Positions 30,457 through 47,448 of a stretch of DNA of 47,448 nt are shown here, piece by piece. The DNA lies in assembly GCA_049296775.1 (NCBI GenBank), contig JBAQTB010000003.1:336068-383515 (forward strand), given 5' to 3'. The stretch comes from Patescibacteria group bacterium (GTDB taxonomy: Bacteria; Patescibacteriota; Patescibacteriia; UBA9934). Under the pieces are notes generated by a model, which was given only the letters and a program-made list of their open reading frames with translations, was not told where the DNA came from and made no database searches. Each line of letters starts with the position of its first letter. Position 1 is the stretch's first letter. A program made the translations under genes and the position numbers.

Positions 30457-30485
30457 AGATTAGCGGAGAAAATCAGCTACGTCAA
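30457..30485 (-). promoter_or_regulatory. candidate rplJL promoter
   Basis: Minus strand reads TTGACG (30485-30480) - 17 nt - TAATCT (30462-30457). The -35 box overlaps the stop codon of the upstream cohesin-like gene. It gives a ~140-nt leader. Confidence 0.45.
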
Positions 30486-31762
30486 GACTCATGGTGGTCG
30501 GAATGATCCAGATCATGATGATGCTGCAATTCCGCCTGCTCATGCTCCTCAGCTTGAATTTGACGCAAAGCCTCACGGTAACGCCTCAGCCTGTGCCAGA
30601 TGTGCAGATGGAAGAGGTAATACAAGAGCAAAATCACCAAACCAATGCCGAGCAAGACAAAGATATTATCCTTGACTAGGCGAATAATTGATGCGCCCAC
30701 GGTCACGTTAATATGCTCATCCGTGACATTCCCAGCTTTATCAAAAACTCTCACCACCACCCTAAAACGACTACCGATCAAACTCGGTAGCTGATAAGGG
30801 CTCTCTGTACGCACAAACACCGGCGATTCATCAGCAGATTGGCTAGCTTCCAAAACACCAACTTCATAATGGTCTATCCCAGAGTGTTCGTCAGTAGTGA
30901 AAAAAGAAATAAACACCTTGGCCTGCTCATTAGAAAACAGCACTTCTGACACGGGCTTAAACTTAGCCGGCGGTTGAGTATCAACACGTAACAGTAAATG
31001 GGTCGGTGTGCCCCACACGTCTTGTCTACGCGCTTTCACATGAAAATACCAAACACCGTCTGCCACATCATTGAAACTCACAATCGCGTCGCTCGTATCC
31101 GGAGTATTGTCAGGAACGGTAAACGGCTTGTTATCTAGTTCGTAGCTAAAATCGGTGACGCCGGATTGCTTCTCTAACGTCAACGTGATCGAATTATTGT
31201 TGTACCACTGATCACTAAACGGATGCGTATCTGAGTACACGTTAACCCCCTCCAATGGCCGCGGAGTGATCGAAAATGTTGCCCTCCCCAAACCGGATAG
31301 CGTTTGAGTGCCTAGACCGTCATTAGCCAAAACGCTGGAACTGGACCGGATCTCAACAACTGCCGTGCCGGGATTAATGGCTTCAAAAGTAATCGTTGAA
31401 ACTAGTCCGCTACTCGTAGTAATGCCATTTGGGATAACGCCCACCAGATGAGCTGTGCCGTTTACATTAGAATAAACGGGAGGCTCAAGCCAGATAGCTA
31501 ACAAAGACTTATCTGACGACGGCTTCACGATTCTCAGCTTGTCAGCAGGAAAACTAATATCAACCTGAACCGTATTAATGCTCTGACCCTGGGAATTCAA
31601 CAGGACTGAAACATCAAAAGTAGAACCTACGAGATTAGTTCCAGCCGCTGGTGAAAAAAATAGCTGTGTACCCTCCGTTTGCGCCTGTGTGGTGACGGGA
31701 AAAGTTGGCCAGGCCAAGCCCACCAATAGCGTCAACATTAAGCAAAAACGAAAAAAACGCAT
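30482..31762 (-). CDS. cohesin-like domain protein A (signal peptide, cohesin-like module, two further beta-rich modules, TM anchor, His-rich tail)
   Basis: Signal peptide MRFFRFCLMLTLLVGLAWPTFPVTTQA. Cohesin-like module LFFSPAAGTNLVGSTFDVSVLLNSQGQSINTVQVDISFPADKLRIV...LAIWLEPPVYSNVNGTAHLVGVIPNG. TM helix IFVLLGIGLVILLLYYLF. Tail ...HEQAELQHHHDLDHSDHHES. Confidence 0.6.
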   Translation of the reverse strand: MRFFRFCLMLTLLVGLAWPTFPVTTQAQTEGTQLFFSPAAGTNLVGSTFDVSVLLNSQGQSINTVQVDISFPADKLRIVKPSSDKSLLAIWLEPPVYSNVNGTAHLVGVIPNGITTSSGLVSTITFEAINPGTAVVEIRSSSSVLANDGLGTQTLSGLGRATFSITPRPLEGVNVYSDTHPFSDQWYNNNSITLTLEKQSGVTDFSYELDNKPFTVPDNTPDTSDAIVSFNDVADGVWYFHVKARRQDVWGTPTHLLLRVDTQPPAKFKPVSEVLFSNEQAKVFISFFTTDEHSGIDHYEVGVLEASQSADESPVFVRTESPYQLPSLIGSRFRVVVRVFDKAGNVTDEHINVTVGASIIRLVKDNIFVLLGIGLVILLLYYLFHLHIWHRLRRYREALRQIQAEEHEQAELQHHHDLDHSDHHES

Positions 31763-31768
31763 ACACCG

Positions 31769-32773
31769 CTACAACTCCGTTAATGACTTCTCAAGTTGAT
31801 CCTCTAAATTAACCAGTGCCTTTGACGCCGCCAAGACCGCAACCTTGGCCGCCTTAGGTAAGTTGCGTTGCCGACTAAGCTTTTCCAAATCATGCAAATG
31901 TTTAGCGGTGCTCAAATTAATCATTTTCAACCTGCGACTAACTGGAACTGACCTTGAGTCCCTTGGAGCGCGCCCACCCCAACCAAAGTGAGCCTTAACC
32001 AAGCCTACCAGAGCAAGCAGTACCAAACCCACCAAAGCCAAAAGCAGCAAGGCGAAGACTATGAAAATTACGAGTTCAAAAGTTTGCATGGCGCCTAACT
32101 GTTTAAATAGACCCTTCTGTTCATCTGAATCAGTTCCGACGACATCAAGACCAAAAGCTGAGGCTAAAGCGGTATGAATACCGGCTACCCTGCCAATCGG
32201 ATGCCAATCATACGCGGCTACCGGCTCAGTGCCATCACCTTCCTCCCCGATCAGAGCAGTGCCAGCGGGATTAGCTGCGAAAGCAAAGCTGGCTGCCCCA
32301 AAGTCACCAGAAATATCTGTACCGTTCCCGTCATTTGCTAAAACCAAGCCGTTTACAAAACTGAGATTAGCCGACTCTTCACCCAAAACCTCAAAGGTGA
32401 CGTTCAAAAGCTTACCGCCCGTCCCCTGATAGCCGGGATTCGGAATAAGACCTTCAAAACTCAAAGTTCCCGAAGTGTTGGAATAAGCTGGCTCACGTAC
32501 CCAGAGTTGAATCATTGATCCAGACTTTGAAACGGAAGTAATCTTGACTTGATCAGGTGGAAATTGAATCAGGGCTGAGAAAGCGCTAGCCGGCTGATCC
32601 GAACTATCCGCGTAAATACCCACTGTGAAAGATGAATGTGCCGAATACGTACCGCCACTGGGAGAAAAATACTGACTAGCTGCCTGCGCAGACACAGTCA
32701 TGGACAGCGCGCAGACTAAACTTAAAAGTATTCCCCCTACCCGCGGCGCCCACGATGCAATTTTTTCGCCCAT
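31769..32773 (-). CDS. cohesin-like domain protein B (signal peptide, cohesin-like module, TM anchor, cytoplasmic tail)
   Basis: The ATG at 32773 (MGEKIASWAPRVGGILLSLVCALSMTVSAQA) is preferred to the track's GTG at 32854. Cohesin-like module QYFSPSGGTYSAHSSFTVGIYADSS...IQLWVREPAYSNTSGTLSFEGLIPNPGYQGTGGKLLNVTFEV. TM helix FELVIFIVFALLLLALVGLVLLALVGLV. Confidence 0.6.
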   Translation of the reverse strand: MGEKIASWAPRVGGILLSLVCALSMTVSAQAASQYFSPSGGTYSAHSSFTVGIYADSSDQPASAFSALIQFPPDQVKITSVSKSGSMIQLWVREPAYSNTSGTLSFEGLIPNPGYQGTGGKLLNVTFEVLGEESANLSFVNGLVLANDGNGTDISGDFGAASFAFAANPAGTALIGEEGDGTEPVAAYDWHPIGRVAGIHTALASAFGLDVVGTDSDEQKGLFKQLGAMQTFELVIFIVFALLLLALVGLVLLALVGLVKAHFGWGGRAPRDSRSVPVSRRLKMINLSTAKHLHDLEKLSRQRNLPKAAKVAVLAASKALVNLEDQLEKSLTEL

Positions 32774-33546
32774 AGGTGACGAAGGAAAATAACTCCGACC
32801 ACTCCCAAGAAAACTAAGCCAAGTATACCCCAAAATTGATAGCCCTCGTACCACTCATGCTCAGCCGTACCAACCATCTGGACAACCCTCTCATTCCCAG
32901 CTTTATCAATAGCCTTTACCCTCACAACACGCCGCAAGTTCTGGTCGATCAAAACATGTGGGCTATTGGCCGTAACCCAGCCGCCCTGACCTTCTTTAAC
33001 CTCATACCTATCAATCCCGCTTCCCTTATCCTGAGCTGAAAAAATTACCGCCCACTGATCAAACTCGGCTGGAGAACCTAGCACGGGTGTAAAAATCTCC
33101 GGCGGCTCAGTGTCTAATGGCGCCGTGTATTCACCTACCTCACCTTCACTGACCACGGTGAATTGCAACGGGCCAGGCACAACCTCAGCATCACTCCCCA
33201 GACCATCACTCAGTAAAATACGGGTATCTTCAGCTGACAAGTTCGCTACCCCTAAGCTATTCGCTTGCAGCACCAATACGAACAGCTCAGCCCGATCACC
33301 TGAATACCCACCAGGAATGGCTCCGCTAAACTCAACTCCACCCGCCGCCGCATGTGGTCGTTCGATCCATAAACTCACGGCAGAGTTGCCATCGCGTATA
33401 TTTATAAGCCTAAAACCTTCCGGCAAGTTAATCTTGCTCTCGATAGCCGCGACGGTTTGTCCGTGCGTATCCAGAAATACGCCAACTTCAAAAGTTTCAT
33501 TAAGCGTAACGGATAAGTCTGACATGCCGAAATAAATCTGTGCCAT
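32737..33546 (-). CDS. cohesin-like domain protein C (no obvious signal peptide; cohesin-like module, DKAGN module, TM anchor)
   Basis: The ATG at 33546 (MAQIYFGMSDLSVTLNETFEVGVFLDTHGQ...), 5 nt after the dockerin-gene stop, is preferred to the track's GTG at 33609. It shares the DTxPP...SGIDxYEV...DKAGN module with protein A. TM helix FWGILGLVFLGVVGVIFL plus a basic tail. Confidence 0.55.
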   Translation of the reverse strand: MAQIYFGMSDLSVTLNETFEVGVFLDTHGQTVAAIESKINLPEGFRLINIRDGNSAVSLWIERPHAAAGGVEFSGAIPGGYSGDRAELFVLVLQANSLGVANLSAEDTRILLSDGLGSDAEVVPGPLQFTVVSEGEVGEYTAPLDTEPPEIFTPVLGSPAEFDQWAVIFSAQDKGSGIDRYEVKEGQGGWVTANSPHVLIDQNLRRVVRVKAIDKAGNERVVQMVGTAEHEWYEGYQFWGILGLVFLGVVGVIFLRHLWAKKLHRGRRG

Positions 33547-33550: not shown

Positions 33551-34882
33551 CTAGCCTGACCAGTAATAAGCCATGATCGCAAAATCGACCAAGTCCAACC
33601 TACCGTCACCGTTCAAATGATTCTGCTCCTTAATGCTAAAAGCCGGACTGAGTTCTCGCTTATACCAAAAACCCGCAATCGCAAAATCGACTAAATTAAC
33701 TTGACCGTCTTCATTTAAATCACCCTTCAAATAAGTCTCGTCTATTACGGGTACATTCTCATCTGCCACAGTAAAAGTCTGCGGAGTGCCAAAATCACTC
33801 TGTCCGGCCAGGCCGCTACTTCGGCTCATGACCGTATAATTGCCTAAACGTAAAGCCTGCGTTGGTAATGAATAACTATATTTTCCAGCTTCGTCCGCTG
33901 AGGTCTCAATCAAGTCAACGGTCTGACCGTCTAAAAAAATACTTACTAAACTAGCGGGTGCCGTTTGACCAAAAATCGAAATGCTATCACCTCTTTTTAC
34001 TTGTGACTTAGTCAGACTCAAAGTCGGAGATAGGTAAATACCGCTAATGTTTGTAATATTTTCACTAGCAATCGCTACCCTGAAGGTTCGGACCGCTGAA
34101 CGATGCCCGGCAGTATCTTCACCGTAAATCACAAAATTATATGTGCCAGTACTCAAACCAGTCAGCGCCATTTCAAAGGTACCATTTGATGCCGCTTCAG
34201 TATCTAGAGCGAATTCACCATCTTTCAGCAAAGTAATCCTACCCCTTGGAAAGGCGGTACCCGCAAAAGTCACTAAATTATCTCCAGCCTCCGTACCTCC
34301 ATCAACAGGTCCAGGTGATCCACCACCCCCGCCTCCGCCGCTACCACCAGCTCCACCGCCACCAGCCGCTACTGGCACCGAACTAACTTCAGACGAATAA
34401 GTATTCTGGTTTAAATTTGCATCGTTAACCTTAATCACAAAGTAGTAAATGGTGTCATTGGTCAGACCCGTCACAGTTGTGGAAGTAGAGACTCCAACGC
34501 TGGTATAAGTATACGGTCCACCAGAGGCCGTGGCTTGACCAACGGAATAGCTAGAAACTACGCCCCCGAAATACGTGGTTGAGGCCGTCCAGCTTAAATC
34601 CACCTCTGTATCACCAGCTGTAGCGGTAATCACCGGAGACGTAAAGTGAGCATAGCTCTCAGTACCGGCCCGACCCACAAACGCCCCACCAGCGCTGTAG
34701 CCGCTCTCAATTCTAGCACCGGTCTGTGAAAACACCGCAAACGACGAAGAGCTAGAATAACCACCCACTAAAGTTAAAAAAGGATCACGTAAAATAAAAT
34801 CGCTCCCGGAATAATCCTCCGCTAACACTAAAGCGGAAGGCCAGAGCATTGCTGCCATGAGTAACCAGGCCAAAATCCTCAT
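33551..34882 (-). CDS. secreted FN3 / Ig-like protein with a C-terminal type-I-like dockerin
   Basis: Signal peptide MRILAWLLMAAMLWPSALVLA. FN3 pattern (VDLSWTAS...VTGLTNDTIYYFVIKV). Gly linker GGGGAGGSGGGGGGGSPGP. Two Ig-like modules. The C-terminus has a duplicated Ca-loop/helix: DLNEDGQVNLVDFAIAGF and LNGDGRLDLVDFAIMAY. Confidence 0.7.
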   Translation of the reverse strand: MRILAWLLMAAMLWPSALVLAEDYSGSDFILRDPFLTLVGGYSSSSSFAVFSQTGARIESGYSAGGAFVGRAGTESYAHFTSPVITATAGDTEVDLSWTASTTYFGGVVSSYSVGQATASGGPYTYTSVGVSTSTTVTGLTNDTIYYFVIKVNDANLNQNTYSSEVSSVPVAAGGGGAGGSGGGGGGGSPGPVDGGTEAGDNLVTFAGTAFPRGRITLLKDGEFALDTEAASNGTFEMALTGLSTGTYNFVIYGEDTAGHRSAVRTFRVAIASENITNISGIYLSPTLSLTKSQVKRGDSISIFGQTAPASLVSIFLDGQTVDLIETSADEAGKYSYSLPTQALRLGNYTVMSRSSGLAGQSDFGTPQTFTVADENVPVIDETYLKGDLNEDGQVNLVDFAIAGFWYKRELSPAFSIKEQNHLNGDGRLDLVDFAIMAYYWSG

Positions 34883-34897: not shown

Positions 34898-35341
34898 CTA
34901 GTTATTAGCTTCATTTTCAGCACTTGCGCCTGCCACGTCTGGCTCCAGAGGGCTACCAGTGTCTGCACCTAAGCTGATAGGTGCTACTTCAACAATTTTA
35001 TTTGCTACTGGATCATATAAAATAGCTTTCTTGGCATTCGTATACAGCAAAACCCTGTCGCCAGTCTTGGCATTCGCAAAAAAAGTCTGGTCCCTGAGCC
35101 GTTCAGGATCAGCCACGGTAGCCACCGTAGGAGTTTCATCAGTGGGTAAAACGATTAATTTACCAACATCCATAATCAGTCTATCGACCTCAGCTGCCGC
35201 CAAAGTGTCGGAATCAGTCTTCAGCGTTTGCATTTCCAAAAATAGGTAGACGCCGGCTGCAATCGAACTCAGCAACAACAAGACTAAAACCGGCACTATG
35301 AGGCGCTTCCACCACGGTTTTCTCAAGCCTGAGTCTGACAT
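34898..35341 (-). CDS. hypothetical N-terminally anchored small protein (147 aa)
   Basis: A basic N-terminus plus TM helix (RKPWWKRLIVPVLVLLLLSSIAAGVYLFL), then a ~100-aa external domain. No family recognised. Confidence 0.5.
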   Translation of the reverse strand: MSDSGLRKPWWKRLIVPVLVLLLLSSIAAGVYLFLEMQTLKTDSDTLAAAEVDRLIMDVGKLIVLPTDETPTVATVADPERLRDQTFFANAKTGDRVLLYTNAKKAILYDPVANKIVEVAPISLGADTGSPLEPDVAGASAENEANN

Positions 35342-35366: not shown

Positions 35367-35375
35367 ATTCTAGCA
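35367..35375 (-). promoter_or_regulatory. possible extended -10 promoter
   Basis: Minus strand reads TGcTAGAAT about 25 nt upstream of the 35341 ATG, with no good -35 box. Confidence 0.3.
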
Positions 35376-35413: not shown

Positions 35414-36484
35414 TCATGTCTGCATTTTGTCCTGCTCATGACTATGCTTGAACCAGATCAAAGTACGCTGTAAGCCGTCAGACAATGACACCTGAGGTGC
35501 GTAACCCAATTCGCTTCTAGCTAAACTAATATCAGGGCAACGGCGCATCGGCTCTTCATTAGGATAACCATCCGGATACGGTATTTTAGCTATAACTGCC
35601 GTCTGAACTAAGGCACACACAGCTTGAGCTAGCTCATTTAAACTGACCTCATGTGGGTTGCCGATATTATGTACCTGAGCGCCGTGCTCCGCTAGCATAA
35701 CTTGCAGAAAACCGGTGATTGCATCAGAGATATAGCAATAACTCCGTGTCTGCAGCCCATGCCCGTGAACCGGCAGAGGCTCGTCGCGTAAAGCGCAGGT
35801 TAAAAACTGCGGCACTACTCTGCGATCATCTGGACGCATGCCTGGCCCATACACATTGAATGGACGAATGATCTGAACCGGAATACCAAACAGCCGCTGA
35901 TAAGTAATGGCTAGAGTTTCACTCATGCGCTTAGATTCATCGTAGCAAGCACGAGGACCCAAAGTAGAGACTTGACCCATGTAGGTCTCAGGTGTGGGAA
36001 TGGCATGATCCGGTGGATCTCCGTAAATTTCACTGGAACTAAAGACTAAAAACTTGTGCAACTGTTGGCTTCTGGCAAACTCCAATAAGTTCTCCGTACC
36101 GTGAACTGCCGCCCGAATAGTTTCCAATGGAAATTTAGTGTAATACACCGGTGAAGCAATACCCGCCATGTGCACGATATAATCCACCTTCAAATCTAAA
36201 CTAAGTGGCGCACAAATATCCGTAGTAATGTGAGTAAAATTTAGGTCATATAATTCTCCAAAAGTATTTAGACCCGTACCCACAATCGAACTATCAATAG
36301 CGATCACTTTGCAAGGCTTGGCTAAAACATGCTGATTTAGGTGCTGTAACGCAAGCAAAAAATGACGTCCTAAAAAACCTGAACTCCCAGAAACTAACAA
36401 GGTTTTACCGCTAAGTTTATGCGCCTGAGCACCCAAAGCTTGCACTATGGCCTGCAGGTCAGCAGCTAATACTTGACCAAACAT
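35414..36484 (-). CDS. UDP-glucuronate decarboxylase-like SDR (UXS / ArnA C-terminal-domain family)
   Basis: GSSGFLGRH Rossmann motif, SSSEIYGDP, GPRACYDESKRMSE (YxxxK), DDRRVVPQF and GHGLQTRSY. These are close to the human/bacterial UXS motifs STSEVYGDP, GPRACYDEGKR, DGRVVSNF and GSQTRAF. Confidence 0.75.
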   Translation of the reverse strand: MFGQVLAADLQAIVQALGAQAHKLSGKTLLVSGSSGFLGRHFLLALQHLNQHVLAKPCKVIAIDSSIVGTGLNTFGELYDLNFTHITTDICAPLSLDLKVDYIVHMAGIASPVYYTKFPLETIRAAVHGTENLLEFARSQQLHKFLVFSSSEIYGDPPDHAIPTPETYMGQVSTLGPRACYDESKRMSETLAITYQRLFGIPVQIIRPFNVYGPGMRPDDRRVVPQFLTCALRDEPLPVHGHGLQTRSYCYISDAITGFLQVMLAEHGAQVHNIGNPHEVSLNELAQAVCALVQTAVIAKIPYPDGYPNEEPMRRCPDISLARSELGYAPQVSLSDGLQRTLIWFKHSHEQDKMQT

Positions 36485-36499: not shown

Positions 36500-37744
36500 T
36501 CACACTACTTTTGGCTTTGGAATTGGCAAAATGAATTTACCCCCAGCCTGTTTAAAGGCTTGATTTTTATCCATTATCGGCTGTGCAAAATTCCAAGCTA
36601 GAATTAGCAAATAATCCGGCGGCTGCCGTTTCAAAGCCTGCGAGCTGACCACAGGAATGTGCCGCCCAGGTGAATATTTACCCTGCTTGAGCGGACTATC
36701 GTCCACAATGTAGTCCAGCAAATCTGGTCCAATACCGAACACGTTCAGTAAAGTATTCCCCTTGGCCGGTGCACCGTAAGCTGCAATTTTTTTCCCAGCC
36801 TGTTTCAAATTCGTTAAGAGTATTAGGAGATCAAGCTTATTCTGCTGAATCCGAGCGGCATATTCTGTATACAGCCGTATACTCTTCAGACCGAGACTAG
36901 ACTCAGAACGCAAAAATTCCTGAACAGCTGACTGGATCTTATGCTTAGCGGATGCGAATTTAACGTATAGCCTGATCGACCCACCGTGAGTAGAAATTTT
37001 TTGCGCATCAAAAATCCTTAGCCCATGTAGCTTAAAAAACGTATTTAAGGCTGCGACACTAAAATATGACAAATGCTCATGATAAACAGTATCAAAAATA
37101 TTTTGCTGCAAAAAATCAACCAAATAAGGAACTTCAACGATAAATACACCATCCGGCTTGAGTAAGTACTTCACGCCTGCCGTAATATCAGCTAAATCAT
37201 CAACATGAGCAAAGACGTTAGTAGCGGTCACGATATCTGCTGCCCCTACTTTGCGTCTCAACCGAGCAGCGTAAGCACCAGAAAAGAATGCTACTTCAGT
37301 CGGGATTCCTGCCCGGCGTGCCAACTTAGCCACAGCCCGGGCTGGATCTACTCCCAACACCTTTACACCGTGTCGCTTAAATGGCGCCAAGAGGATACCG
37401 TCATTCGAACCAATGTCGATAACTAGTGAATTGGCGTTAAGCGCGAAACGCTCCGTAACCTGCGCAGCTAAACTCTCAAAATGAGCCTGAAATACTGGAG
37501 AAGTAGAAGAAGCGTAAACATACTCAGCGAACATTAGTTTTGGCAGTACCACATCTTGAAGTTGCACCAAGCCACACCGTTGACACAGAAACACGTTCAA
37601 AGGAAAAAACAGCTCCGGTGCATGCAACTGTTCCTGACTCAAAAAAGCATTAGCCAAGGGTGTCTGCCCAAAAGCTAAAACCAGCTTCAATTTGGTATGG
37701 CCGCAAATACGGCAATTGGTGCGGTGTTTAATTAAGCGCGACAT
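36500..37744 (-). CDS. NDP-sugar C-methyltransferase-like protein (Zn-ribbon + class I SAM MTase + C-terminal domain)
   Basis: CRICGH...PLANAF...FPLNVFLCQRCGLVQL Zn-ribbon, then EYVYASSTSPVFQAHF, and the SAM motif VIDIGSNDG. This is the architecture of the TylC3-type sugar C-methyltransferases. The ATG at 37744 is preferred to the track's TTG at 37753. Confidence 0.6.
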   Translation of the reverse strand: MSRLIKHRTNCRICGHTKLKLVLAFGQTPLANAFLSQEQLHAPELFFPLNVFLCQRCGLVQLQDVVLPKLMFAEYVYASSTSPVFQAHFESLAAQVTERFALNANSLVIDIGSNDGILLAPFKRHGVKVLGVDPARAVAKLARRAGIPTEVAFFSGAYAARLRRKVGAADIVTATNVFAHVDDLADITAGVKYLLKPDGVFIVEVPYLVDFLQQNIFDTVYHEHLSYFSVAALNTFFKLHGLRIFDAQKISTHGGSIRLYVKFASAKHKIQSAVQEFLRSESSLGLKSIRLYTEYAARIQQNKLDLLILLTNLKQAGKKIAAYGAPAKGNTLLNVFGIGPDLLDYIVDDSPLKQGKYSPGRHIPVVSSQALKRQPPDYLLILAWNFAQPIMDKNQAFKQAGGKFILPIPKPKVV

Positions 37745-37749
37745 ATCAC

Positions 37750-38499
37750 TCAACGTTTAGGAAATAGCTTGGTTGGTAAGCCACACCAAGCGCTTAAAAT
37801 ATATAAACCCAAGACCTTAAAAGTTTGCATGGCATACACCGTTGATTTCTTGAGACTGATAGAGGTATGTTCCTCATGGTAATCACAACGCACCGGCACC
37901 TCAGCAACTTTAAAATCGTAATATTTTGCTTGAGCGATGATCTCGAAGCTGTATAGGTAATCGTCAGAGGTACCCGCGAAAGTAAGCTTATCAAAAAGCT
38001 TAGCACTATACACCCTAAATCCCGAATGAAACTCTGTTAACGGTAGCTGTAAGATCAAGCGATCGATCGTGCTCAAACCCAGATTAGCCAAATACCGCGC
38101 GTACGAAATCCCGTCCCGCAAAGGCTGCAAAATATGCCCAGCAAAACGTGAACCGAGCAAAAAATCGAGCCCTTCTGCTTCCATCTTTGCCACTGCCAGG
38201 GCCGCATCCGTACTAGCGTACTGACCGTCACCATGTATCTCAACCATATAATCAGCCCCCAGCTCTAAGGCTTTGGCCAAACCAAACTTCAGATTCCCGC
38301 CGTACCCCAAGTGAGTGTGGGTAAATGCCAGTAAACCCAAACTCTCAGCTACCGCCAGCGTATTGTCCGCTGAACCGTCGTCAACCACAATGAGCTGCGT
38401 GTATGCCGTTTTAGGTAAACGCTCCAGCGTACGCCTAAGCATATGCACGCAGTTGTACGTCATAATCACGCCGATGACTTTAACTTTATCGTCTAACAT
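37750..38499 (-). CDS. GT2 polyprenyl-phosphate glycosyltransferase-like (ArnC/Dpm1-like)
   Basis: VIGVIMTYNC...VVDDGSADNT and DGDGQY (DxD). It is short and soluble-like with a C-terminal hydrophobic segment. The ATG at 38499 is preferred to the track's TTG at 38517, and it overlaps the upstream gene by 14 nt. Confidence 0.6.
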   Translation of the reverse strand: MLDDKVKVIGVIMTYNCVHMLRRTLERLPKTAYTQLIVVDDGSADNTLAVAESLGLLAFTHTHLGYGGNLKFGLAKALELGADYMVEIHGDGQYASTDAALAVAKMEAEGLDFLLGSRFAGHILQPLRDGISYARYLANLGLSTIDRLILQLPLTEFHSGFRVYSAKLFDKLTFAGTSDDYLYSFEIIAQAKYYDFKVAEVPVRCDYHEEHTSISLKKSTVYAMQTFKVLGLYILSAWCGLPTKLFPKR

Positions 38500-40516: not shown

Positions 40517-43500
40517 TTAAGTAGAAACAGGTGATGTTGACACTTCTGCAGGAACTGGATCTGAGCTGACAGGCTCTGATGGGGTGTTTTCTGGAGCTTC
40601 CAGAACTGGAGTCGGTAAGACCGGCTCAATCACTTCAGGCTCAACAGGGACTGTTTCAGGGTTAGCCACATTTTCCTCAGCATCTGTCTGCTCGACGACT
40701 GGCTCGCCGCCAGTGTCCCCCACCTCATCAGTTTCACCAGCGATCTCTGGCTCAGGTACGGTGAGCTGTTCGCTTGGAACATTATCCTCAAGTGGCGCAA
40801 AATCTGGGTTTAAATTGTCTGGCGTAGTGGCATCAAATGGATCGATTACAGCCCCATTCGTAGGTGGCTCAGAAATTACCGGCGGCTGGACAACCGGAGC
40901 GCCAACGCTAGACTCAGCTAAACCAGCGTCCTTAATGGCCAAAGCAATCCAACTAAACCGTAGATCAAAGGGGGCAGCTTGACTGAGTGTCACAGTAAAG
41001 CCCGTCGTACTCTTGTCTGTAATGACATAACGAAGGTCACTGGCTAAGTATGCTTGCTCTGCCGCTGCCATATCCGCAATCAATGTCTGATCAGCAGCCT
41101 CAAAGTTCACGCTGGCCTGAACAACCGGCTGAGTCAGATATGCTTCTGTAAAATTCACTCTAACCTGCTTAGCGCCCGCGTGAATCAAGGCAAAACCGCC
41201 CATGTCAGCGTTAAAGTAAGGTCTACCGATCACCACTAAGTCGCTCAAGAAAGTTACCGCGTTGCCAAATGAACCGATCGTATCCACTTTTATTCCACCC
41301 GCAAAACTCGCCAAGCCCTGCACGGACAGATCGCCAGCCAAATCTAGGAAAGCCATGTTTAGGCCGGGCTGATCTTCCACCGCCGTAATCCTACCGAGTA
41401 AATCGGTCAAGCTGCCGTCTGTGATAACCACAGACGCTTCCACAGCAGCTAAACGTAAATCTAGCGCCTGCAAGCCAGCCAGCATCGAATCATTAATGAT
41501 CAGCTGGGAATCAATATGCTGATTAAGTGTAGCTAATAACGTTGTCGATTGCCCAGTCACTTGGCCGGACAGAGAGAGCGCGTAACTCTCAACCGCCGCG
41601 ACCATATCCCTCACATTCACCAAGTCAGCTGCAGTGACTTCCGTAGTATCGCTACTCAGGCCATCAACAGCGTCAGACAAAACCGCGATTCTGTCAGCGA
41701 AAATATCCAGGCCCGTGATGGTGTTGGCGTTGAAACTATCAGCCGTGACTGTGCCACGGAAATAGGCGTTGCCGGTAGCGTCAAAGCGAATAACTGCATC
41801 GTCTTCCATGATATTTTCAGGCTCTCCGTCAGCTTGAATCGCCGGTATTGCTGCCGGCCCCTTAATCACAAACTCTCCGTCAGCATTCAAAACCACCTGA
41901 AGCTCGGTACCAGTGACTGGCATCAAGATATCTGTCTGCACGGCGTTAGCGATGACTCTTGGAGTAATAATCTCCAGTCCGGCCGCAATTCTATCGGCTG
42001 AAATCTCAGAGAGTTCTAGTTGATTAGATAGTGCATCTTTTTGATGCATGAAATACTGCAAGGCTTGAGTGCCAACATCTGGTAACTCCAATGTTTCGCC
42101 GACCGTCTCAGTATCCGTAAGCGCTTCTGCACCTGAATCAGGTGGCGCCACTAAGCCAGAAAGTAAAGTCTTAATTGAAGAACCGTTAGCGTAACTGGTC
42201 TTAATGAAGGCTGTTACAACTGGCAATTCCTCATATGCGCCCGCGTAACCGGTAATCGCCTGACCTACAACCTGACCAGCCTTAGTAGCCCGCATCGCCA
42301 CACCCGGGACAGATGAACTAGTTAGCAAGTCTCCAGGCTGAATCGGGCCATTTTCAATGGAGACTTTTACCGGTACACGACCAGCCAAAGCCACCACAGC
42401 TGCGCGTTTACCATAATCCTCAATACTTCCCATGACGATACTCGGTGCAGTAGAGATGACACCAATCGCCGTTGGGTCATACGGACCCGTACTCTTCTTA
42501 ACCCCGGCTATCAGGGTTGGATCTAAAGACACCACGTCACCAGGCACGATCTCGTCATCATTAGTGGAGTAAATTTCCGCAATGTCAGCGCCAGTGCCCT
42601 TGATGGTCCATACACGTACCTCTCCGCGGCCGCCGGTTCCACCGTTACCGCCGTTTTCACCAGAAGCACCACCACCAGCACCACCACCAGCACCGCCGCC
42701 CAAAGCGCCTCCATCCCCTCCAATTGCTCCAACACCAGTAGCTACTCCACCTCCACCACCACCTCCACCACCGATGATACCGGTTCCGGCAGTACCGGCA
42801 GTACCAGCCGTACCGCCAGAAGTACCACCCGCCGCCCCAGTGTTAGACGTATAAGTACCTGCCAAGCCACCATTACCACCACCACGACTTGGGCCATTAG
42901 CACCAGCGCCACCTCCGGCACCACCCCTCAATGAGCCGCCACCGCCGCCAGAAGTGGTAGTGCTTGTACCACCGCCGCCAGCTCCACCAAATTGAGCGTT
43001 ACCTCCACCGGCTGCGTTGATTGTTCCGCCACCGCCACCCGCACCAGAAGCGTTAACAGTTGCGGGCAGAGGTCCACCACCGGCCACATTGGTGGTGCTA
43101 CCGTTGGTACCTACGCTTGATTCTCCACCTCCACCACCACCGCTGCTCACTGTAGCCGCCACCTGTCCGGCTCTACCGCCACCGCCACCAAAAGCTTGTT
43201 GATAAATAGTTCCAGTACATGCCGCACCAGTACTAAAACAACTTGACGCGCCCGGATTACCAGGAGACCCAGCATTGTTGTTCGAAGTGGAGCCAGCACC
43301 ACTCGCACCACCTGCACCAACGTCAACTTCAACTGTAGACGCTAAATCAGAAGCATCGAAATACTTTTCCACGTACGCTCCGCCACCGCCTCCGCCACCG
43401 CCGGCTCCAACAGCATTATTACCCCGTCCACCACCGCCTCCGCCACCGCCGGCTCCAAAGATTTTAACGAAAACTAGAACTGCATCGGCTGGTTTTGTAT

Positions 43501-46500
43501 ATGTACCATCTGCGGTATAAACGTTCTCAGTAATTGGGGCGATATCATGAACCGTGCCGTTCTCACATACTTTGATCTTGGTCTCAGAAGTATCGGCGTA
43601 AATATTATAATTACCAGCCGCACACGTAGGATTGGTGTCTGACTCCGTAAACTCAACACCTAAATTAGACGCCACCACTTGGCCAGTCGGCGCCAACGTA
43701 CCCACAGTCCCTGTATCTGTAACAGTCAACAAGTCATTACCGCTAGTGTCTTCTATAGTTAGCGTTCCAGAAGCACTTTCAAAGATCCTAACGGTATTCA
43801 TCTGGAAAAAATTATCACCTAGGTATAAGCCAGTACCGATATTAGAATCTGAAACGTTGACGCCGTATCGTATACCATTATCAACATTAGGCGATGTAAT
43901 TAACAAGCCACTAGTCAGGGTATTAGTAGTGGTTTCAGCATTATTGATACGTATCCCGGCATCCATAGACGTGTCCGCCGCACCGTCCTCCCAGTTGATG
44001 ACAATCCCGTCAAATGTGTCTCCAGAATCTCCAGACTCAGACGTTAGATCTAGACGTAAAGCATCAAAGTCGTCAGTACCATTGCCATCATCAATTTGAT
44101 CAAAATCAAAGGTAAATCCGTTTTGGCTGTTTTGAGCAGTATAGACAAAAGTTACGGTTTCAGCCTCGTCAAAAGTAACAGAAGTAACACCCGTCGGATC
44201 GCCGATGTCGTTAAAAGCCGTGGCCCCTCCCGATCCACAGCTATCCCATTTAAAATCTCCACCACCGGAAGTTTCAAACTGTAAACATTCACCGTCAGCT
44301 GGCGCTCCGTCTTCTGTGGCGTAATCAAGATCATCAGCATCCAAAGTGCCGTTTAAAATATCGGCAGATTCAATATTAGTAATCGAGTTGCCTGTGCCAT
44401 TAGCATCGAGATCTATGCCGGTAAGTGCGCCAGCGCTAGTAATTGCCCAACCGGCACCGCCCGTAATCGCGACCGTAGTTGAAGCATGAGCATTACCAAT
44501 CGTGATTACATCAGCAGCGGTGGCGTTAGTCGCGATATTGATCGTGTTGGTTCCGCTCGCAGTTACGCCTCCGATGTCGATGGTGGAGGTGACAGCCGCA
44601 TCATTAAAATTAACGGTCGTAGCGGCGCCGAAAGCGTTAACGGTCGTGGCATTAGTATTAATGAGGTTAAAAGTTGCCGCACTCGTAGTCAAATCACCAC
44701 CGTTAACGGACACATCACCTGACACATCTAGCGTTACCGTGCTCAGATAGACAAAGTCACCCTCACCTTCCGCCGTAACAGACCAATCATCACCTCCGGA
44801 TACGGCAACCGTCGTAGCAGCGTTCAAATTACCGATAGAGATCACATCAGCAGCAGTGGAATTAGTAGCGATATTAACTGTGTTAGTGCCACTGGAAGTT
44901 ACGCCTCCGATGTCGATGGTGGAAGTTACAGCAGCATCGTTGATATTCAGGGTGGTTGCAGCATCAAAAGCATTGATGGTGGTTGAGGCCGTGGCTAGGA
45001 GATTAAAAGTTGCAGATGAGCTTGTCAGGTCGCCACCGTTTAGAGCGATGTCACTAGCAGTCGTGATTAGACCAGCTGACGTAATCGACCAATCAGCATC
45101 AATGATCGTAATACTGTCGGTAGAGCTACCAATGTTAATGACATCGGTATCTCCCTGAGTTCCAATAGTAATTGTGTCGCAGGCTGCAGAGTTACACAAA
45201 GATAAAGTGGTAGCACTTGTTCCAGCTATCAATAATACTCCAGCTGCGTTAGTGTCTAATCCAATACCCGCGGCCACAGTGATATGTCCGGTCGACGCTA
45301 CGTCAAAGTTAGTGAAGTCAATGGTAGAGGTAGTACCGACAAGTGAGTAAGTGGTACCGGTGATGTTATTATCTCCAATTGAGAGAGAGTTAGTATAATC
45401 AGTATCCGTAATATCTATGGCGGTGGTAGCCGTAGCGCTAGCTGAGAGCGTCATGACTCCCGTGGCCGCAATTGACCAATCATCACCACCTGTTATGGCC
45501 ACCGTAGAAGAAGCATGAGTATTACCAATCGTAATGACATCAGCCGCTGTCGCATTAGTCGCGATGTTAACGGTATTCGTACCGCTATTAGTCACGCCAC
45601 CGATGTCGATGGTCGAAGTTACCGCCGCGTCATTAATATTGAGCGCAGTAGCCGCATCAAAGGCGTTGATCGTCGTAGAAGCAGTTGCGAGCAAGTTGAA
45701 GGTCGCCGCTGAACTCGTCAAATCACCACCCGTGATAGCGATATCCCCTGCTGTCGTCAAAGTTCCACTGCCAAGGAAGCTAAAGCTAGGATTAGTAGTC
45801 GCATTACCAAAAGCGATGTTCTCTGAGGCATTGGTAGTATTGATGTTTATGTAGTTATTAGTCCCTTCCTGAATGTCTAGAGCATCTGTAATATTGTCAG
45901 TTAAGGTGGAAGATAGAGTATCTGTTAAGAAAGCAACTGTACCTGTGCCATCCTGGAAGGTTATGGTCTGCTCATCAGTTGGATCAGTAATAACAAACGT
46001 TGTCCAATTGTCGTCATCCGTTGCACCCTCAAAGACAAACGGGGTAGCTCCTAGAATCTGAGCCGCTCCGGTTGTGATGTTACCTCCTGAGACCGTGAGC
46101 CCAGCTGAGCCCGTGATGAGGCCGTCAGCGGTAATGGCTCCAATGCCTGTCATGGCTCCCGTAGCTGAAATATCCCAGTCAGAAGAATTGATCGCGACAG
46201 TAGCCGAATTATTGCCAAGCGCCGTCACTCCGGTTGATGACAAAGTAGTAAAAGCACCGGTCGATGGAGAATTGGCACCAATCGCAGTGCCATCGATGGC
46301 ACCTCCGTTGATGTCGACAGTAGTAGCGGTCAATGTGCCCGAGTCAGTCAGTTCTGAGAGTGCAATGCCACCGTCAAGGACAGTGATCTCAGCATCAGCG
46401 ACGGTAGTGGCTCCAATAACAAGAGATAACGAGGCTCCGTTAATGATAACGGTGTCATTAGCAGCGTCACCAATCGTTATAGCATCCGCATCAGCGTTAG

Positions 46501-47448
46501 TCCCAATCGTTATAGTGTCGCAAGCAGCTGAGTTACAGACAGAGACTGAAGTCGCGTTAGTGTTGCCGAGAGCAAGGGCCCCAGCTGCGTTAGTATCGAG
46601 CCCAACGCCAGCCGCAACCGTAATCGCACCCGTGGAAGCTACATCAAAGTTAGTAAAGTCGATGGTCGAAGTTGTACCGATCAGTGAATAAGTAGTACCG
46701 GTGATATTGTTATCACCGATCGACAAGGAGTTGGTGTAATCGGTGTCAGTGATAACGATGGCGGTTGTCTGAGCTCCGGTAGCCGCTAGAGTGATTACAC
46801 CTCCAGAAGAAATGTCCCAGTCAGTGCTATCGATTGCAACAGTGGCCGAGTTGTTGCCAAGCGCCGTGACTCCAGTGCTCGATAGTGTCGTGAAGGCACC
46901 GGTTGATGGTGATGAGGCACCAATAGCCGTGCCATCGATGGCACCACCATTGATGTCCACAGTGGTGGCGGTCAGTGTGCCGGAATCGGTGAGCTCGGAC
47001 AGAGCAATGCCGCCGTCTAGGACATTGATTTCTGAGGATGAGATCAATGTACCGGCGTTATCGATAATGTTAGTAAAGGTGCCACCAGCGTCAACGATCT
47101 TAATGGCTGCACCCACAGCATCATCAGCGTCAGAGTTATCTAGCACGAGAGTAGCATCAAGCCCTTCGGTTGAGGCTAGATTATCGACATAAAGACCGAA
47201 CTGACTCGTAGTTGCCGCTCCAGTGTCTGAGGCTGTAAACGTGAAGATAACACCATTCTCGGCAGTATCGTTAGTCAAAGAACGAGCAATAGTAAAGGTT
47301 TCTCCAGCTAGCCCAGTTACTAGGAAGGCAGCATCAAGAGCAGCTGAATCAATGATCTTATCAAAGTCGAGAGTGTCATTAGTCAGGTCAGCGTTATCGA
47401 TGTTAGAGATAGAGTTACCAGAACCATTGGCATCAAAGCTAGCTCCAG
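40517..47448 (-). CDS. giant mosaic repeat surface protein, partial (N-terminus beyond the right edge)
   Basis: I checked codon by codon that the frame stays open from 47278 to the window end, so there are >=2309 codons in the window; the track's M at 47278 is an internal TTG. The N-terminal 950 aa are Thr/Ala/Gly/Asp-rich repeat families. These are followed by a Cys-containing module, a Gly-rich domain, a tail-fibre-like module, a coiled-coil-like region and a Pro/Glu/Val-rich acidic tail. Confidence 0.85.
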   Translation of the reverse strand, partial: GASFDANGSGNSISNIDNADLTNDTLDFDKIIDSAALDAAFLVTGLAGETFTIARSLTNDTAENGVIFTFTASDTGAATTSQFGLYVDNLASTEGLDATLVLDNSDADDAVGAAIKIVDAGGTFTNIIDNAGTLISSSEINVLDGGIALSELTDSGTLTATTVDINGGAIDGTAIGASSPSTGAFTTLSSTGVTALGNNSATVAIDSTDWDISSGGVITLAATGAQTTAIVITDTDYTNSLSIGDNNITGTTYSLIGTTSTIDFTNFDVASTGAITVAAGVGLDTNAAGALALGNTNATSVSVCNSAACDTITIGTNADADAITIGDAANDTVIINGASLSLVIGATTVADAEITVLDGGIALSELTDSGTLTATTVDINGGAIDGTAIGANSPSTGAFTTLSSTGVTALGNNSATVAINSSDWDISATGAMTGIGAITADGLITGSAGLTVSGGNITTGAAQILGATPFVFEGATDDDNWTTFVITDPTDEQTITFQDGTGTVAFLTDTLSSTLTDNITDALDIQEGTNNYININTTNASENIAFGNATTNPSFSFLGSGTLTTAGDIAITGGDLTSSAATFNLLATASTTINAFDAATALNINDAAVTSTIDIGGVTNSGTNTVNIATNATAADVITIGNTHASSTVAITGGDDWSIAATGVMTLSASATATTAIDITDTDYTNSLSIGDNNITGTTYSLVGTTSTIDFTNFDVASTGHITVAAGIGLDTNAAGVLLIAGTSATTLSLCNSAACDTITIGTQGDTDVINIGSSTDSITIIDADWSITSAGLITTASDIALNGGDLTSSSATFNLLATASTTINAFDAATTLNINDAAVTSTIDIGGVTSSGTNTVNIATNSTAADVISIGNLNAATTVAVSGGDDWSVTAEGEGDFVYLSTVTLDVSGDVSVNGGDLTTSAATFNLINTNATTVNAFGAATTVNFNDAAVTSTIDIGGVTASGTNTINIATNATAADVITIGNAHASTTVAITGGAGWAITSAGALTGIDLDANGTGNSITNIESADILNGTLDADDLDYATEDGAPADGECLQFETSGGGDFKWDSCGSGGATAFNDIGDPTGVTSVTFDEAETVTFVYTAQNSQNGFTFDFDQIDDGNGTDDFDALRLDLTSESGDSGDTFDGIVINWEDGAADTSMDAGIRINNAETTTNTLTSGLLITSPNVDNGIRYGVNVSDSNIGTGLYLGDNFFQMNTVRIFESASGTLTIEDTSGNDLLTVTDTGTVGTLAPTGQVVASNLGVEFTESDTNPTCAAGNYNIYADTSETKIKVCENGTVHDIAPITENVYTADGTYTKPADAVLVFVKIFGAGGGGGGGGRGNNAVGAGGGGGGGGAYVEKYFDASDLASTVEVDVGAGGASGAGSTSNNNAGSPGNPGASSCFSTGAACTGTIYQQAFGGGGGRAGQVAATVSSGGGGGGESSVGTNGSTTNVAGGGPLPATVNASGAGGGGGTINAAGGGNAQFGGAGGGGTSTTTSGGGGGSLRGGAGGGAGANGPSRGGGNGGLAGTYTSNTGAAGGTSGGTAGTAGTAGTGIIGGGGGGGGGVATGVGAIGGDGGALGGGAGGGAGGGASGENGGNGGTGGRGEVRVWTIKGTGADIAEIYSTNDDEIVPGDVVSLDPTLIAGVKKSTGPYDPTAIGVISTAPSIVMGSIEDYGKRAAVVALAGRVPVKVSIENGPIQPGDLLTSSSVPGVAMRATKAGQVVGQAITGYAGAYEELPVVTAFIKTSYANGSSIKTLLSGLVAPPDSGAEALTDTETVGETLELPDVGTQALQYFMHQKDALSNQLELSEISADRIAAGLEIITPRVIANAVQTDILMPVTGTELQVVLNADGEFVIKGPAAIPAIQADGEPENIMEDDAVIRFDATGNAYFRGTVTADSFNANTITGLDIFADRIAVLSDAVDGLSSDTTEVTAADLVNVRDMVAAVESYALSLSGQVTGQSTTLLATLNQHIDSQLIINDSMLAGLQALDLRLAAVEASVVITDGSLTDLLGRITAVEDQPGLNMAFLDLAGDLSVQGLASFAGGIKVDTIGSFGNAVTFLSDLVVIGRPYFNADMGGFALIHAGAKQVRVNFTEAYLTQPVVQASVNFEAADQTLIADMAAAEQAYLASDLRYVITDKSTTGFTVTLSQAAPFDLRFSWIALAIKDAGLAESSVGAPVVQPPVISEPPTNGAVIDPFDATTPDNLNPDFAPLEDNVPSEQLTVPEPEIAGETDEVGDTGGEPVVEQTDAEENVANPETVPVEPEVIEPVLPTPVLEAPENTPSEPVSSDPVPAEVSTSPVST
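42611..43516 (-). repeat. Gly-rich low-complexity coding region (GGN runs)
   Basis: Runs from YTADGTYTKPADAVLVFVKIFGAGGGGGGGGRGNNAVGAGGGGGGGGAY... to ...GGAGGGAGGGASGENGGNGGTGGRGEVRVW. The plus strand shows long (ccn)n tracts, which produce the Pro-rich antisense ORFs in the track. Confidence 0.9.
44441..45730 (-). repeat. intragenic repeat family 3 (3 copies, ~87 aa)
   Basis: GGDLT(S/T)SAATFNL(L/I).T.A(S/T)T(I/V)NAF.AAT.(L/V)N.NDAAVTSTIDIGGVT.SGTNT(V/I)NIATN.TAADVI(T/S)IGN...A.(S/T)TVA(I/V).GG..W occurs at 45470-45730, 44777-45037 and 44441-44701. Confidence 0.9.
45158..46765 (-). repeat. intragenic repeat family 2 (2 copies, ~89 aa)
   Basis: TAI(V/D)ITDTDYTNSLSIGDNNITGTTYSL(I/V)GTTSTIDFTNFDVASTG.ITVAAG.GLDTNAAG...CNSAACDTITIGT occurs at 46499-46765 and 45158-45424. 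Confidence 0.9.
46166..47032 (-). repeat. intragenic repeat family 1 (2 copies, ~75 aa, 642-nt period)
   Basis: The sequence E-I-(N/T)-VLDGGIALSELTDSGTLTATTVDINGGAIDGTAIGA(S/N)SPSTGAFTTLSSTGVTALGNNSATVAI(D/N)S(T/S)DWDIS occurs at 46808-47032 and 46166-46390. The protein copies are near-identical, while the DNA differs mostly at third codon positions. Confidence 0.9.

Follow-up and report, generated by a model that had tools for sequence, protein, structure and literature searches.

A conserved cohesin-dockerin surface gene set in Patescibacteria as a candidate host-attachment device

Do ten adjacent genes for surface proteins and sugar-modifying enzymes in a patescibacterial genome act as one machine, or have several gene sets come to lie side by side? 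This question is raised by a 47,448-nt stretch of DNA from a Patescibacteria group bacterium (GenBank assembly GCA_049296775.1, contig JBAQTB010000003.1, positions 336,068 to 383,515; the whole stretch is referred to as the window), in which ten consecutive minus-strand open reading frames (ORFs) fill positions 30482-47448. In order of transcription, these encode a giant fibre protein, a multi-pass membrane protein with tetratricopeptide repeats (TPR), a family 2 glycosyltransferase (GT2), a C-methyltransferase, a short-chain dehydrogenase/reductase (SDR), a small membrane protein, a dockerin protein (Doc) and three cohesin proteins, C, B and A. A preliminary description of this DNA, which counted eleven genes but itself listed ten, had taken them for one functional unit of three parts that builds, glycosylates and docks a surface appendage. 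This proved too strong a claim, as the sugar genes form a clade-specific island and the fibre and Doc sets are separable. We favour, with a probability of roughly 0.55, a layered assembly composed of a Doc/cohesin anchor, a fibre partner and a clade-specific sugar insert, rather than one indivisible unit; our confidence in the domain identities and their conservation is higher than in this overall reading. Coordinates below are those of the window and, unless stated otherwise, refer to its minus strand.

A nearly invariant dockerin-cohesin gene set

Doc (33551..34882) is a predicted secreted protein of 443 aa, consisting of a signal peptide, an N-domain, an fn3 domain, a Gly run, two Ig-like domains and a dockerin (Pfam fn3, Big_13 and Big_6), a layout seen in an alignment of 35 full-length homologues. 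More than 565 homologues were found in total, at ~40% identity over the full length. The type-I-like dockerin module spans residues 386-438 (33569..33727; Pfam Dockerin_1) and is built from two EF-hand-like loop-helix repeats, DLNEDGQVNLVDFAI and LNGDGRLDLVDFAI. Tandem segments of ~22 residues, each with a calcium loop and a helix (DLNEDGQVNLVDFAIAGFWY and LNGDGRLDLVDFAIMAYYW), are near-invariant in the 35 orthologues, with the family repeat consensus reading DLNxDxxVNLVDFSI and LNGDGKIDLVDFSI; Asp is lacking at position 1 of the second loop. The window copy itself scores 21.7 bits against Dockerin_1 (PF00404), below the cut-off of 22.9 (E 2.4e-4), and 32 of the 35 family members match the same model at E 0.01 or better (best 3.9e-9). 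In the alignment, the C-terminal repeats of Doc show a type I dockerin signature. Doc contains the only dockerin-like loop match of the window. Within 10 kb of the related loci (80-84 loci), 41 out of 44 such matches fall into Doc-sized ORFs and another into a Doc fragment (locus L017); the remaining two (L008 and L075) are Asp/Gly-rich strings that lack the dockerin helix. A 'dockerin' protein of Southlakia epibionticum, SEML1_0315, is essential (Wang et al. 2023, PMC10633639); we considered it as a Doc orthologue and rejected it, since it is encoded by a stand-alone gene of 927 aa with unrelated neighbours.

Cohesin protein A (30482..31762) comprises a signal peptide, a cohesin module (31259..31675), an fn3-like middle domain, an Ig domain, a transmembrane (TM) helix and a His-rich tail. 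Its AF2 model (pLDDT 87) contains three beta-sandwich domains, and the N-terminal one, assigned to the cohesin fold (a nine-stranded jelly-roll beta-sandwich), superimposes on clostridial cohesins with a TM-score (TMt) of 0.74-0.76 and a root-mean-square deviation (rmsd) of 2.5-3.5 Å in a Foldseek search of the PDB. Matches include 6kgc_A (TMt 0.76, rmsd 2.5 Å), 1g1k, 2vn5 and 2vn6 (TMt 0.63-0.74), and 2w1n (E 2e-10). Among the window copies, Pfam Cohesin (PF00963) matches neither A nor C, and B only at E 0.035; at the family level it matches 32 of 38 members of the A family (best 2.9e-9). A cohesin is also the best PDB profile match of A (E 0.009) and of C (E 0.008, a R. flavefaciens scaffoldin). 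More than 1245 homologues of A were retrieved.

Protein B (31769..32773; Pfam Cohesin, hhalign) carries a signal peptide, a cohesin, a linker, a TM helix and a cytoplasmic tail of ~80 aa, and aligns with the A family at a probability of 100% (hhalign, E 3.8e-41). Protein C (32737..33546) does so at E 7.7e-43, likewise with 100% probability, and combines a cohesin with an OmpL47-type Ig domain (NCBIfam barrel_OmpL47, 1.2e-9) and a C-terminal TM helix. By these profile alignments, B and C are paralogues of A, with C equivalent to A minus the middle domain. Each of the three proteins has one cohesin module and, at its C-terminal end, a membrane helix with a basic tail behind it. The fn3-like middle domain of A (30782-31258, residues 169-327), which is missing from C, retains invariant S-x-T-H-P, W-Y-N-N, P-D, D-G-x-W-Y-F-H-x-K and W-G motifs in 38 distant orthologues; these residues (THP/WYNNN) make it look like a conserved ligand-binding or catalytic site.

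The start of C in the window is unusual. Its first residues, MAQIYFG, are encoded 4 nt past the Doc stop, with no signal peptide. Most of 79 C orthologues have a classical signal peptide, which ends just before the residues equivalent to the start of C in the window, and signal-peptide-less forms also occur in L001, L006, L008, L023, L028, L034 and L044. A programmed frameshift that would fuse Doc to C was considered and discarded, because the frame of C relative to Doc differs between the window and L001. The C-terminal helix and basic tail predict an outward-facing domain for C in the window as well.

How widely this arrangement is shared was assessed by comparing ~90 related loci; counts of gene order come from the 80 best loci, with all proteins of the window mapped onto them. 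Homologues of A and Doc number in the hundreds of full-length sequences for each family, at 40-50% identity, and stem almost exclusively from metagenome-assembled genomes (MAGs) of Patescibacteria. When one genome per species was scanned, no fewer than 404 species-level genomes proved to encode a relative of Doc. Among the 80 best loci, the lineages represented are Magasanik-, Uhr-, Kaiser-, Taylor-, Nomura-, Buchanan-, Harrison- and Vogelbacteria, Peribacteraceae and Paceibacterota. C directly follows Doc in 73 of 75 loci, and Doc is accompanied by C together with A or B in 62 of 63, where the cohesin complement is all three proteins (16 loci), C and A only (30) or C and B only (16); B is thus variably present among relatives. 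The Doc-C-(B)-A set is therefore almost invariant across Patescibacteria. As for taxonomic labels, many of the public MAG records with the cassette (within L009-L084) bear titles such as 'uncultured Gammaproteobacteria', 'Planctomycetia' or 'Candidatus Saccharibacteria', which look unreliable as a guide to taxonomic range.

Do Doc and the cohesins bind each other? We consider this somewhat probable. Alternatively, they could be non-binding, independent envelope proteins (wall or glycan adhesins, or S-layer-like proteins) whose genes are adjacent for co-expression, in which case the ligand of the dockerin may be calcium or something else. The surplus of cohesins over dockerins and the lack of a co-variation signal, both detailed further below, would fit this explanation, and the extreme conservation of the A middle domain suggests a separate role for this protein. 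Moreover, cohesin and dockerin modules outside cellulosomes, without a known partner, are widespread in all three domains of life, as Peer and colleagues reportedly found in 2009. Against it speak the adjacency of Doc and cohesin genes in very distant lineages and the near-invariant dockerin helices, which are what one would expect of a single fixed partner surface. To our knowledge, cohesin binding is also the sole known function of the type-I dockerin fold in all studied cases. We hence regard a non-binding role as unlikely and retain the reading in which Doc is captured by its neighbours.

The joint presence of cohesin and dockerin domains could also point to a small cellulosome for polysaccharide degradation. 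[quoted passage not shown] Shapirobacterales, detected by groundwater metaproteomics (Bell et al. 2021, 10.1101/2021.08.21.457207), and a similar claim exists for Roizmanbacterium (Geesink et al. 2020, as cited in 10.1101/2021.08.21.457207). At our loci, however, no glycoside hydrolase, carbohydrate-binding module or dockerin-bearing enzyme was found in the window or within 10 kb of the 80-84 loci. As every cohesin protein has just one such module, these regions encode no scaffoldin with multiple cohesins either, and beside its dockerin and conserved N-domain, Doc carries fn3/Ig domains only. Lacking within 10 kb both hallmarks of a cellulosome, a multi-cohesin scaffoldin and dockerin-bearing enzymes, the gene set is very unlikely to encode one.

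The fibre protein and its association with the anchor genes

The gene at the head of the run (40517..47448) has more than 2309 codons visible in the window, the frame being open from 47446 to the stop at 40517, and its N-terminus lies past the window end; complete orthologues (L021 and L068) begin with a signal peptide. L087 and the window are independent assemblies of one organism, and both are broken within this gene, at L087 position 1 and at window position 47448, respectively, as is expected from its internal repeats. Residues 1-1015 (44402..47446) form a Thr/Ala/Gly-rich mosaic, in which a k-mer and diagonal scan resolved three interspersed repeat families with 66-72% identity (protein self-BLAST gave nothing useful): residues 123-230 recur at 337-444, residues 204-328 at 651-775, and residues 550-668 at 781-899 and 903-1015. 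Both the gene order and the mosaic repeats of the preliminary description are real. A Gly-rich region follows (39% Gly, residues ~1300-1605, 42632..43549; weak match to Pfam Gly_rich_2, E 9.7e-4), and the protein ends in a low-complexity tail rich in Pro, Val and Glu (19, 15 and 14%, respectively; 40520..40906). The homologue consensus has a Pro-rich tail as well.

The last ~700 residues of the giant constitute a conserved C-terminal module (AF2 mean pLDDT 74). It starts with a beta domain (42182..42604, pLDDT 88-96) that resembles the 'barrel' of phage pre-neck appendage proteins in both structure and sequence: viral proteins in BFVD match at E 8e-12 to 1e-8, 26-35% identity and an rmsd of ~3 Å over ~145 residues, and two of them are named pre-neck appendage protein ('Preneck appendage protein barrel'). 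Next comes a coiled-coil-like segment with a helix of ~90 residues (41375..41710; helices 308-327 and 334-419 of the model). Near the C-terminus, a beta sandwich (40940..41200) resembles H-type lectins, with Foldseek matches to the Helix agglutinins HPA and HAA, SLL-2 and discoidin II (E 4e-3 to 3e-2, probability 1.0, TMt ~0.5); at the family level, Pfam H_lectin (PF09458) matches 6 of 26 fibre proteins (best 2.9e-9). A beta domain, a long helix and a lectin-like sandwich are elements typical of trimeric receptor-binding fibres. From this anatomy, the giant is probably a secreted, trimeric, sugar-binding fibre or adhesin.

Across loci, fibre length ranges from 0.6 to more than 6.8 thousand residues. 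In L089, a protein of 618 aa that contains little beyond the C-terminal module has the same neighbours as full-size fibres, which argues that the fibre partner is defined by this module and not by its size. The module is encoded upstream of Doc and co-directionally with it in 29 of 46 loci, and roughly six more have another large ORF in this place. On a 1-Mb contig (L004), a fibre of 5047 aa, the small gene, Doc, C and B follow one another in this order, with A convergent and no sugar genes.

Between fibre and Doc lies the gene for the small bitopic membrane protein (34898..35341; 147 aa), with an N-terminal TM helix (residues 14-32) and a conserved domain of ~75 aa. An alignment of 27 orthologues shows L65, P66, E69, P71, F87 and F88 to be invariant, yet even as a 27-sequence profile the protein has no match in Pfam, NCBIfam or the PDB. 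The small gene is located upstream of Doc in 47 of 75 loci, stays with the fibre where Doc is absent (L091), and is repeated in tandem upstream of Doc in L005, L045 and L052, which have two or three copies. The slot between fibre and small gene often holds a class-A beta-lactamase-like gene of ~335 aa (16 loci) or nothing. These slot genes, directly after the fibre, encode ~325-370 aa with SxxK, SDN and KxG motifs and match Pfam Beta-lactamase2 (L007, L009, L012-L014, L017, L019, L033, L050, L051, L060, L064, L073, L076, L078, L085, L086 and L091). The window has no such gene; its giant and TPR-protein genes lie just 42 nt apart. Taken together, fibre-slot-small and Doc-C-(B)-A are two separable sub-modules.

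One may ask whether the fibre gene is a prophage or tailocin remnant that came to lie next to the cohesin and dockerin genes by accident. The phage-like beta domain described above would suit such an origin, and tailspike and pyocin fibre folds are among the PDB matches. But there are no other phage genes nearby, dozens of distant lineages show the same adjacency, complete fibres carry Sec signal peptides, and the GC content over the fibre gene (0.47-0.53) lies within that of the window (0.44-0.53), though the GC skew is positive over 44001-47000. We consider an accidental remnant highly improbable, and return to the fibre as a partner of the Doc/cohesin set.

A lineage-specific sugar island

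Four genes occupy the fibre-small slot of the window. The first encodes a 662-aa protein (38486..40474), a putative GT-C-type glycosyltransferase with a C-terminal TPR domain. It has ~10 hydrophobic segments within residues 1-375 and an invariant Asp33 in a D-L-G-R-H motif after the first transmembrane segment (41 relatives). This agrees with the multi-pass topology of GT-C enzymes and with the acidic residue that they conserve in their first extracytoplasmic loop. Relaxed searches of Pfam and NCBIfam, of PDB sequences and of 1.84 billion representatives, followed by Pfam and PDB searches with the 41 relatives, gave family matches for the TPR part alone; the membrane part matched no Pfam, NCBIfam or PDB sequence entry, with a single stray match to PIG-U (E 0.008). 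Of the domain labels in the preliminary description, dockerin held up at the family level and cohesin in family-level and structural tests, and GT-C found no model support. The 662-aa protein belongs to a very large family, to which 10,656 cluster representatives are assigned at E 1e-3 or better and 699 at 1e-30 or better; no Pfam model covers its membrane part, and many members have no TPR tail.

The second gene (37750..38517) encodes a GT2 of the polyprenyl-phosphate-sugar synthase type (Pfam Glycos_transf_2, E 6.7e-14), whose best NCBIfam match is PpgS (8e-19, under its cut-off). The third (36500..37753) encodes a probable NDP-sugar 3-C-methyltransferase (Pfam Methyltransf_13, 1.7e-22, Methyltransf_23 and Methyltransf_14, 1.3e-59) with the domain layout (zinc-binding N-domain, SAM methyltransferase domain and C-terminal domain) and full-length similarity of the TcaB9/MtmC/KijD1 type: PDB matches are MtmC (4rv9, 1.4e-102 over residues 11-417) and KijD1 and TcaB9 (~1e-77 to 1e-84). 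The fourth (35414..36484) encodes an SDR resembling UDP-glucuronate decarboxylase (UXS), an extended SDR by sequence (Pfam Epimerase, 2e-42) that is similar over its full length to human UXS1 (2b69, 4gll; best 5.9e-57, residues 25-349) and passes no NCBIfam equivalog cut-off. ArnA is matched merely at 1e-12 to 1e-14.

The Arn pathway, which modifies lipid A with L-Ara4N, was rejected as a model for these genes. The SDR is UXS-like, a C-methyltransferase is present, Pfam and NCBIfam searches found no ArnB-type aminotransferase or formyltransferase among the ten genes, and in the same databases the 662-aa membrane protein matches neither ArnT nor PMT_2. The Arn-like glycosylation of the preliminary description is therefore an analogy only.

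Distribution sets the island apart from the surface genes. No SDR, methyltransferase or GT2 gene was found within 10 kb of the 80 distant loci, and the TPR membrane protein was present in one of them (L013), so that sugar genes are absent from 79 of 80. They are also missing from L008, although the junction of A, rplJ and rplL is common to this locus and the window and rplJ is 87% identical. The complete order of the ten genes of the run is kept in L086 and L088 at 55-80% protein identity, there as fibre, beta-lactamase-like gene, TPR protein, GT2, methyltransferase, SDR, small gene and Doc. In L085, the genes for TPR protein and GT2 are fragmented, the methyltransferase gene is inverted, divergent and accompanied by a MocA-type oxidoreductase gene, and there is no SDR; the surface genes are intact. 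L091 encodes a 971-aa fibre followed by a beta-lactamase-like protein, TPR protein, GT2, MocA, methyltransferase, a carbamoyltransferase and the small protein, and has no Doc or cohesin genes, which indicates that the island travels with the fibre. Thus, the sugar island is a lineage-specific insert in the fibre-small slot, which it occupies solely in the clade of the window and a few other lineages, and its tailoring genes vary among relatives. The preliminary description had proposed conservation of the neighbourhood as a check; the surface genes pass it in many lineages and the sugar genes do not. With the sugar genes a local insert, the finding becomes narrower than first claimed, and with the surface cassette found superphylum-wide it becomes broader.

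These data bear on the view that all ten genes form one unit for building, glycosylating and docking a single appendage, with the sugar genes integral and the giant as the docked cargo. In its favour, the order of the window persists in L086 and L088; islands with GT-C-like and GT2 genes recur in the post-fibre slot (window, L086, L088, L085, L091 and partly L013); the Thr-rich giant is plausible for O-glycosylation; and the run contains no strong internal terminator. Yet the sugar genes are lacking from nearly all distant loci and from the close relative L008, they are fragmented in L085 next to intact surface genes, and the comparative data suggest that the cassette functions in relatives that have no island. 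The fibre and Doc sets are separable, and docking of the giant by the cohesins was not borne out, as the giant has no dockerin.

Nor does spacing help this view. Successive gaps within the run are 42, -14, 5, 15, 72, 15, 4, -37 and 6 nt, using starts from an independent gene call on identical DNA (L087), which reproduces the range of -37 to +72 nt given previously. However, the tight co-directional spacing spans the whole window: almost all ORFs of the 47 kb are on the minus strand, and outside the run, too, most gaps do not exceed 60 nt. Co-directional, tightly spaced genes are hence a trait of this genome, no more than expected by chance, and uninformative as to whether the ten form one unit. 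Altogether, a single ten-gene unit appears improbable to us, and we keep to the layered assembly.

As stated before, there is no convincing terminator inside the run. The terminator scan of the window returned 15 weak sites as compared to 19.1 expected from shuffles, and the gap between giant and TPR gene has one weak 5-bp hairpin (40509-40494). The strongest terminator-like site of the scan is a GC-rich hairpin with a T-run (30324..30349), 3' of A, in which GCGCCAacgaTGGCGC is followed by T8 and the start codon of rplJ lies 12 nt downstream. Transcription of the run probably stops here; the hairpin may serve to terminate the cohesin genes, to attenuate rplJ-rplL, or to do both. No Rfam L10 leader was found in the A-rplJ interval (30313-30481), even at E up to 1. 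The extended -10-like motif previously read from the sequence is present (TGCTAGAAT, 35367..35375), in the 72-nt gap before the small gene; it has no properly spaced -35 element, and a consensus promoter scan did not call it.

Beyond the run, the junction of A, rplJ and rplL (29339-31762) is kept in the clade of the window (L001, L008, L085 and L086), and rplK-rplA, the usual upstream partners, are not upstream of rplJ. Between L008 and the window, Doc is 43% identical, compared to 87% for rplJ, which means that the surface proteins evolve much faster than the adjacent ribosomal proteins. A second glycosyltransferase cluster on the minus strand (18327-25865; GT4, a DUF4012 protein and two GT2-type genes) sits ~5 kb downstream of rplL, separate from the run. 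The single clear plus-strand gene of the window (27102-29282) encodes 726 aa with no Pfam match; L001 has an ORF of 727 aa in the same relative orientation, also with no Pfam match. Genes for the alpha and beta subunits of F-type ATP synthase at the far end of the window (1702-5524), tRNA-Thr and tRNA-Tyr (8998-9423), a class II tRNA synthetase and M16 peptidases indicate an ordinary chromosomal context.

A layered assembly and its relation to known systems

How might the layers work together? In the first, the membrane-anchored, outward-facing cohesins C, B and A would hold the secreted Doc stalk by its dockerin through calcium-dependent contacts, thereby fixing the stalk on the outer face of the membrane as a minimal, non-enzymatic 'anchoring scaffoldin'. 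In the second, the fibre would act as a trimeric, lectin-tipped, sugar-binding adhesin that works with the Doc/cohesin platform, likely in host-cell attachment by these probably episymbiotic bacteria; we give this participation of the fibre about even odds. In the third, the UXS-like enzyme would make a UDP-4-keto-pentose or xylose-type intermediate, the 3-C-methyltransferase would branch the sugar, the GT2 would load the methyl-branched pentose onto polyprenyl phosphate, and on the outer side of the membrane the multi-pass TPR protein would pass it on, possibly to the Thr-rich fibre. Glycosylation of the fibre by the island is a tentative proposal, to which we lean less than to either of the other two layers.

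Several observations weigh against this picture. C of the window, with no signal peptide, is at odds with an outward-facing cohesin. Every locus has two or three cohesins per single dockerin within 10 kb. In a co-variation test based on pairwise distance matrices (36-78 loci, other domains as controls), correlations of the dockerin with the C, A and B cohesins were 0.23-0.43 and not above those of the control domains, making the test uninformative. Fibre set and Doc set occur apart in some genomes, and no canonical dockerin was found on fibres within the loci examined; likewise, a hidden Markov model of the Doc N-domain searched against 2492 ORFs matched Doc genes only, with no motif common to Doc and the fibres. 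The fibre of the window has no Pfam H_lectin match and its lectin-like assignment is weak (structural E ~4e-3), and no family model backs the GT-C label on the 662-aa protein.

In a farther-reaching version, many Patescibacteria would attach to hosts by a lectin-tipped adhesin derived from phage fibres, with the Doc/cohesin set as its ancestral membrane anchor, and the whole would amount to an undescribed attachment organelle found throughout the superphylum. Here, cohesin-dockerin pairing would replace sortase or S-layer homology (SLH) anchoring in wall-poor, sortase-poor cells, and the slot inserts (beta-lactamase-like genes or branched-sugar islands) would tune or disguise the fibre. We regard this version as speculative and rather unlikely in its full extent.

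Host recognition and attachment of Patescibacteria are largely unexplained outside the type IV pili of Saccharibacteria, and the cassette provides a concrete set of genes, a candidate host-attachment device. As its parts are small soluble modules, the proposed calcium-dependent binding is open to in vitro assays that need no culture of the organisms. An inference of cellulosomes and carbon turnover is doubtful for this CPR family, since no enzymes are encoded in the cassette. More generally, the division into a core and a clade-specific island matters for inferring function from gene order in co-directional genomes.

We found no description of the conserved cassette in the full-text literature, in which subscription papers are incompletely covered. 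The reports cited above, on CPR Microgenomates, concern the same superphylum and the same two domain types; they favour carbohydrate degradation, and conserved gene order, membrane anchors and a fibre are undescribed there.

Among characterized systems, the clostridial type-I pairs are close to the cassette. The CipC cohesin of C. cellulolyticum (1g1k) and the CohA2-Doc0917 complex of C. acetobutylicum (6kgc) have the same cohesin beta-sandwich as A (TMt 0.74-0.76), and clostridial dockerins display the same duplicated layout of calcium loop and helix, with near-symmetric repeats, as Doc. The logic of clostridial anchoring scaffoldins, in which a cell-bound cohesin holds a secreted dockerin protein, would also apply to the cassette if its predicted binding takes place. 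In contrast to these scaffoldins, the cassette proteins are anchored by a C-terminal membrane helix instead of an SLH domain or sortase signal, and there is one cohesin per protein, a single dockerin protein and no enzyme or carbohydrate-binding module. Moreover, the cassette pair is conserved superphylum-wide, whereas clostridial pairs have diversified by species. The nearest structural relatives are non-cellulosomal cohesin-FN3 modules of C. perfringens: that of GH84C (2w1n), the second-best structural match of A (E 2e-10), has a cohesin followed directly by FN3 as in A. Like the proposed role of the cassette, C. perfringens toxins illustrate the use of cohesin-dockerin pairs beyond cellulose breakdown; their modules reside on secreted glycoside hydrolases, those of the cassette on membrane-anchored proteins and a non-catalytic fn3/Ig stalk.

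The beta domain, long helix and lectin-like sandwich of the fibre recall phage fibres (phi29 gp12 pre-neck appendage, and tail fibres with C-terminal assembly domains) and H-type lectins (Helix pomatia agglutinin). Unlike phage fibres, it is chromosomally encoded, Sec-secreted, up to thousands of residues long and surrounded by cellular genes. The island, in turn, shares with Ppm1/Pmt (protein O-mannosylation in Actinobacteria), ArnC/ArnT (lipid A modification) and TMTC the pairing of a polyprenyl-phosphate GT2 with a multi-pass protein and, as in lipid-carrier glycosylation systems, encodes nucleotide-sugar tailoring enzymes alongside. Eukaryotic TMTC O-mannosyltransferases combine a GT-C part with TPR, which the TPR tail of the island protein recalls. 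The island differs from Arn, Pmt and TMTC in that its membrane protein matches no GT-C model, no ArnB or formyltransferase accompanies it and its SDR is UXS-like, and its 3-C-methyltransferase points to a branched sugar. By analogy, its logic appears closer to lipid-linked glycosylation of the Ppm1/Pmt type than to Arn. Set against these known systems, the cassette would be a membrane-anchored pairing of cohesins and a dockerin outside cellulosomes, with a link to phage-like fibres.

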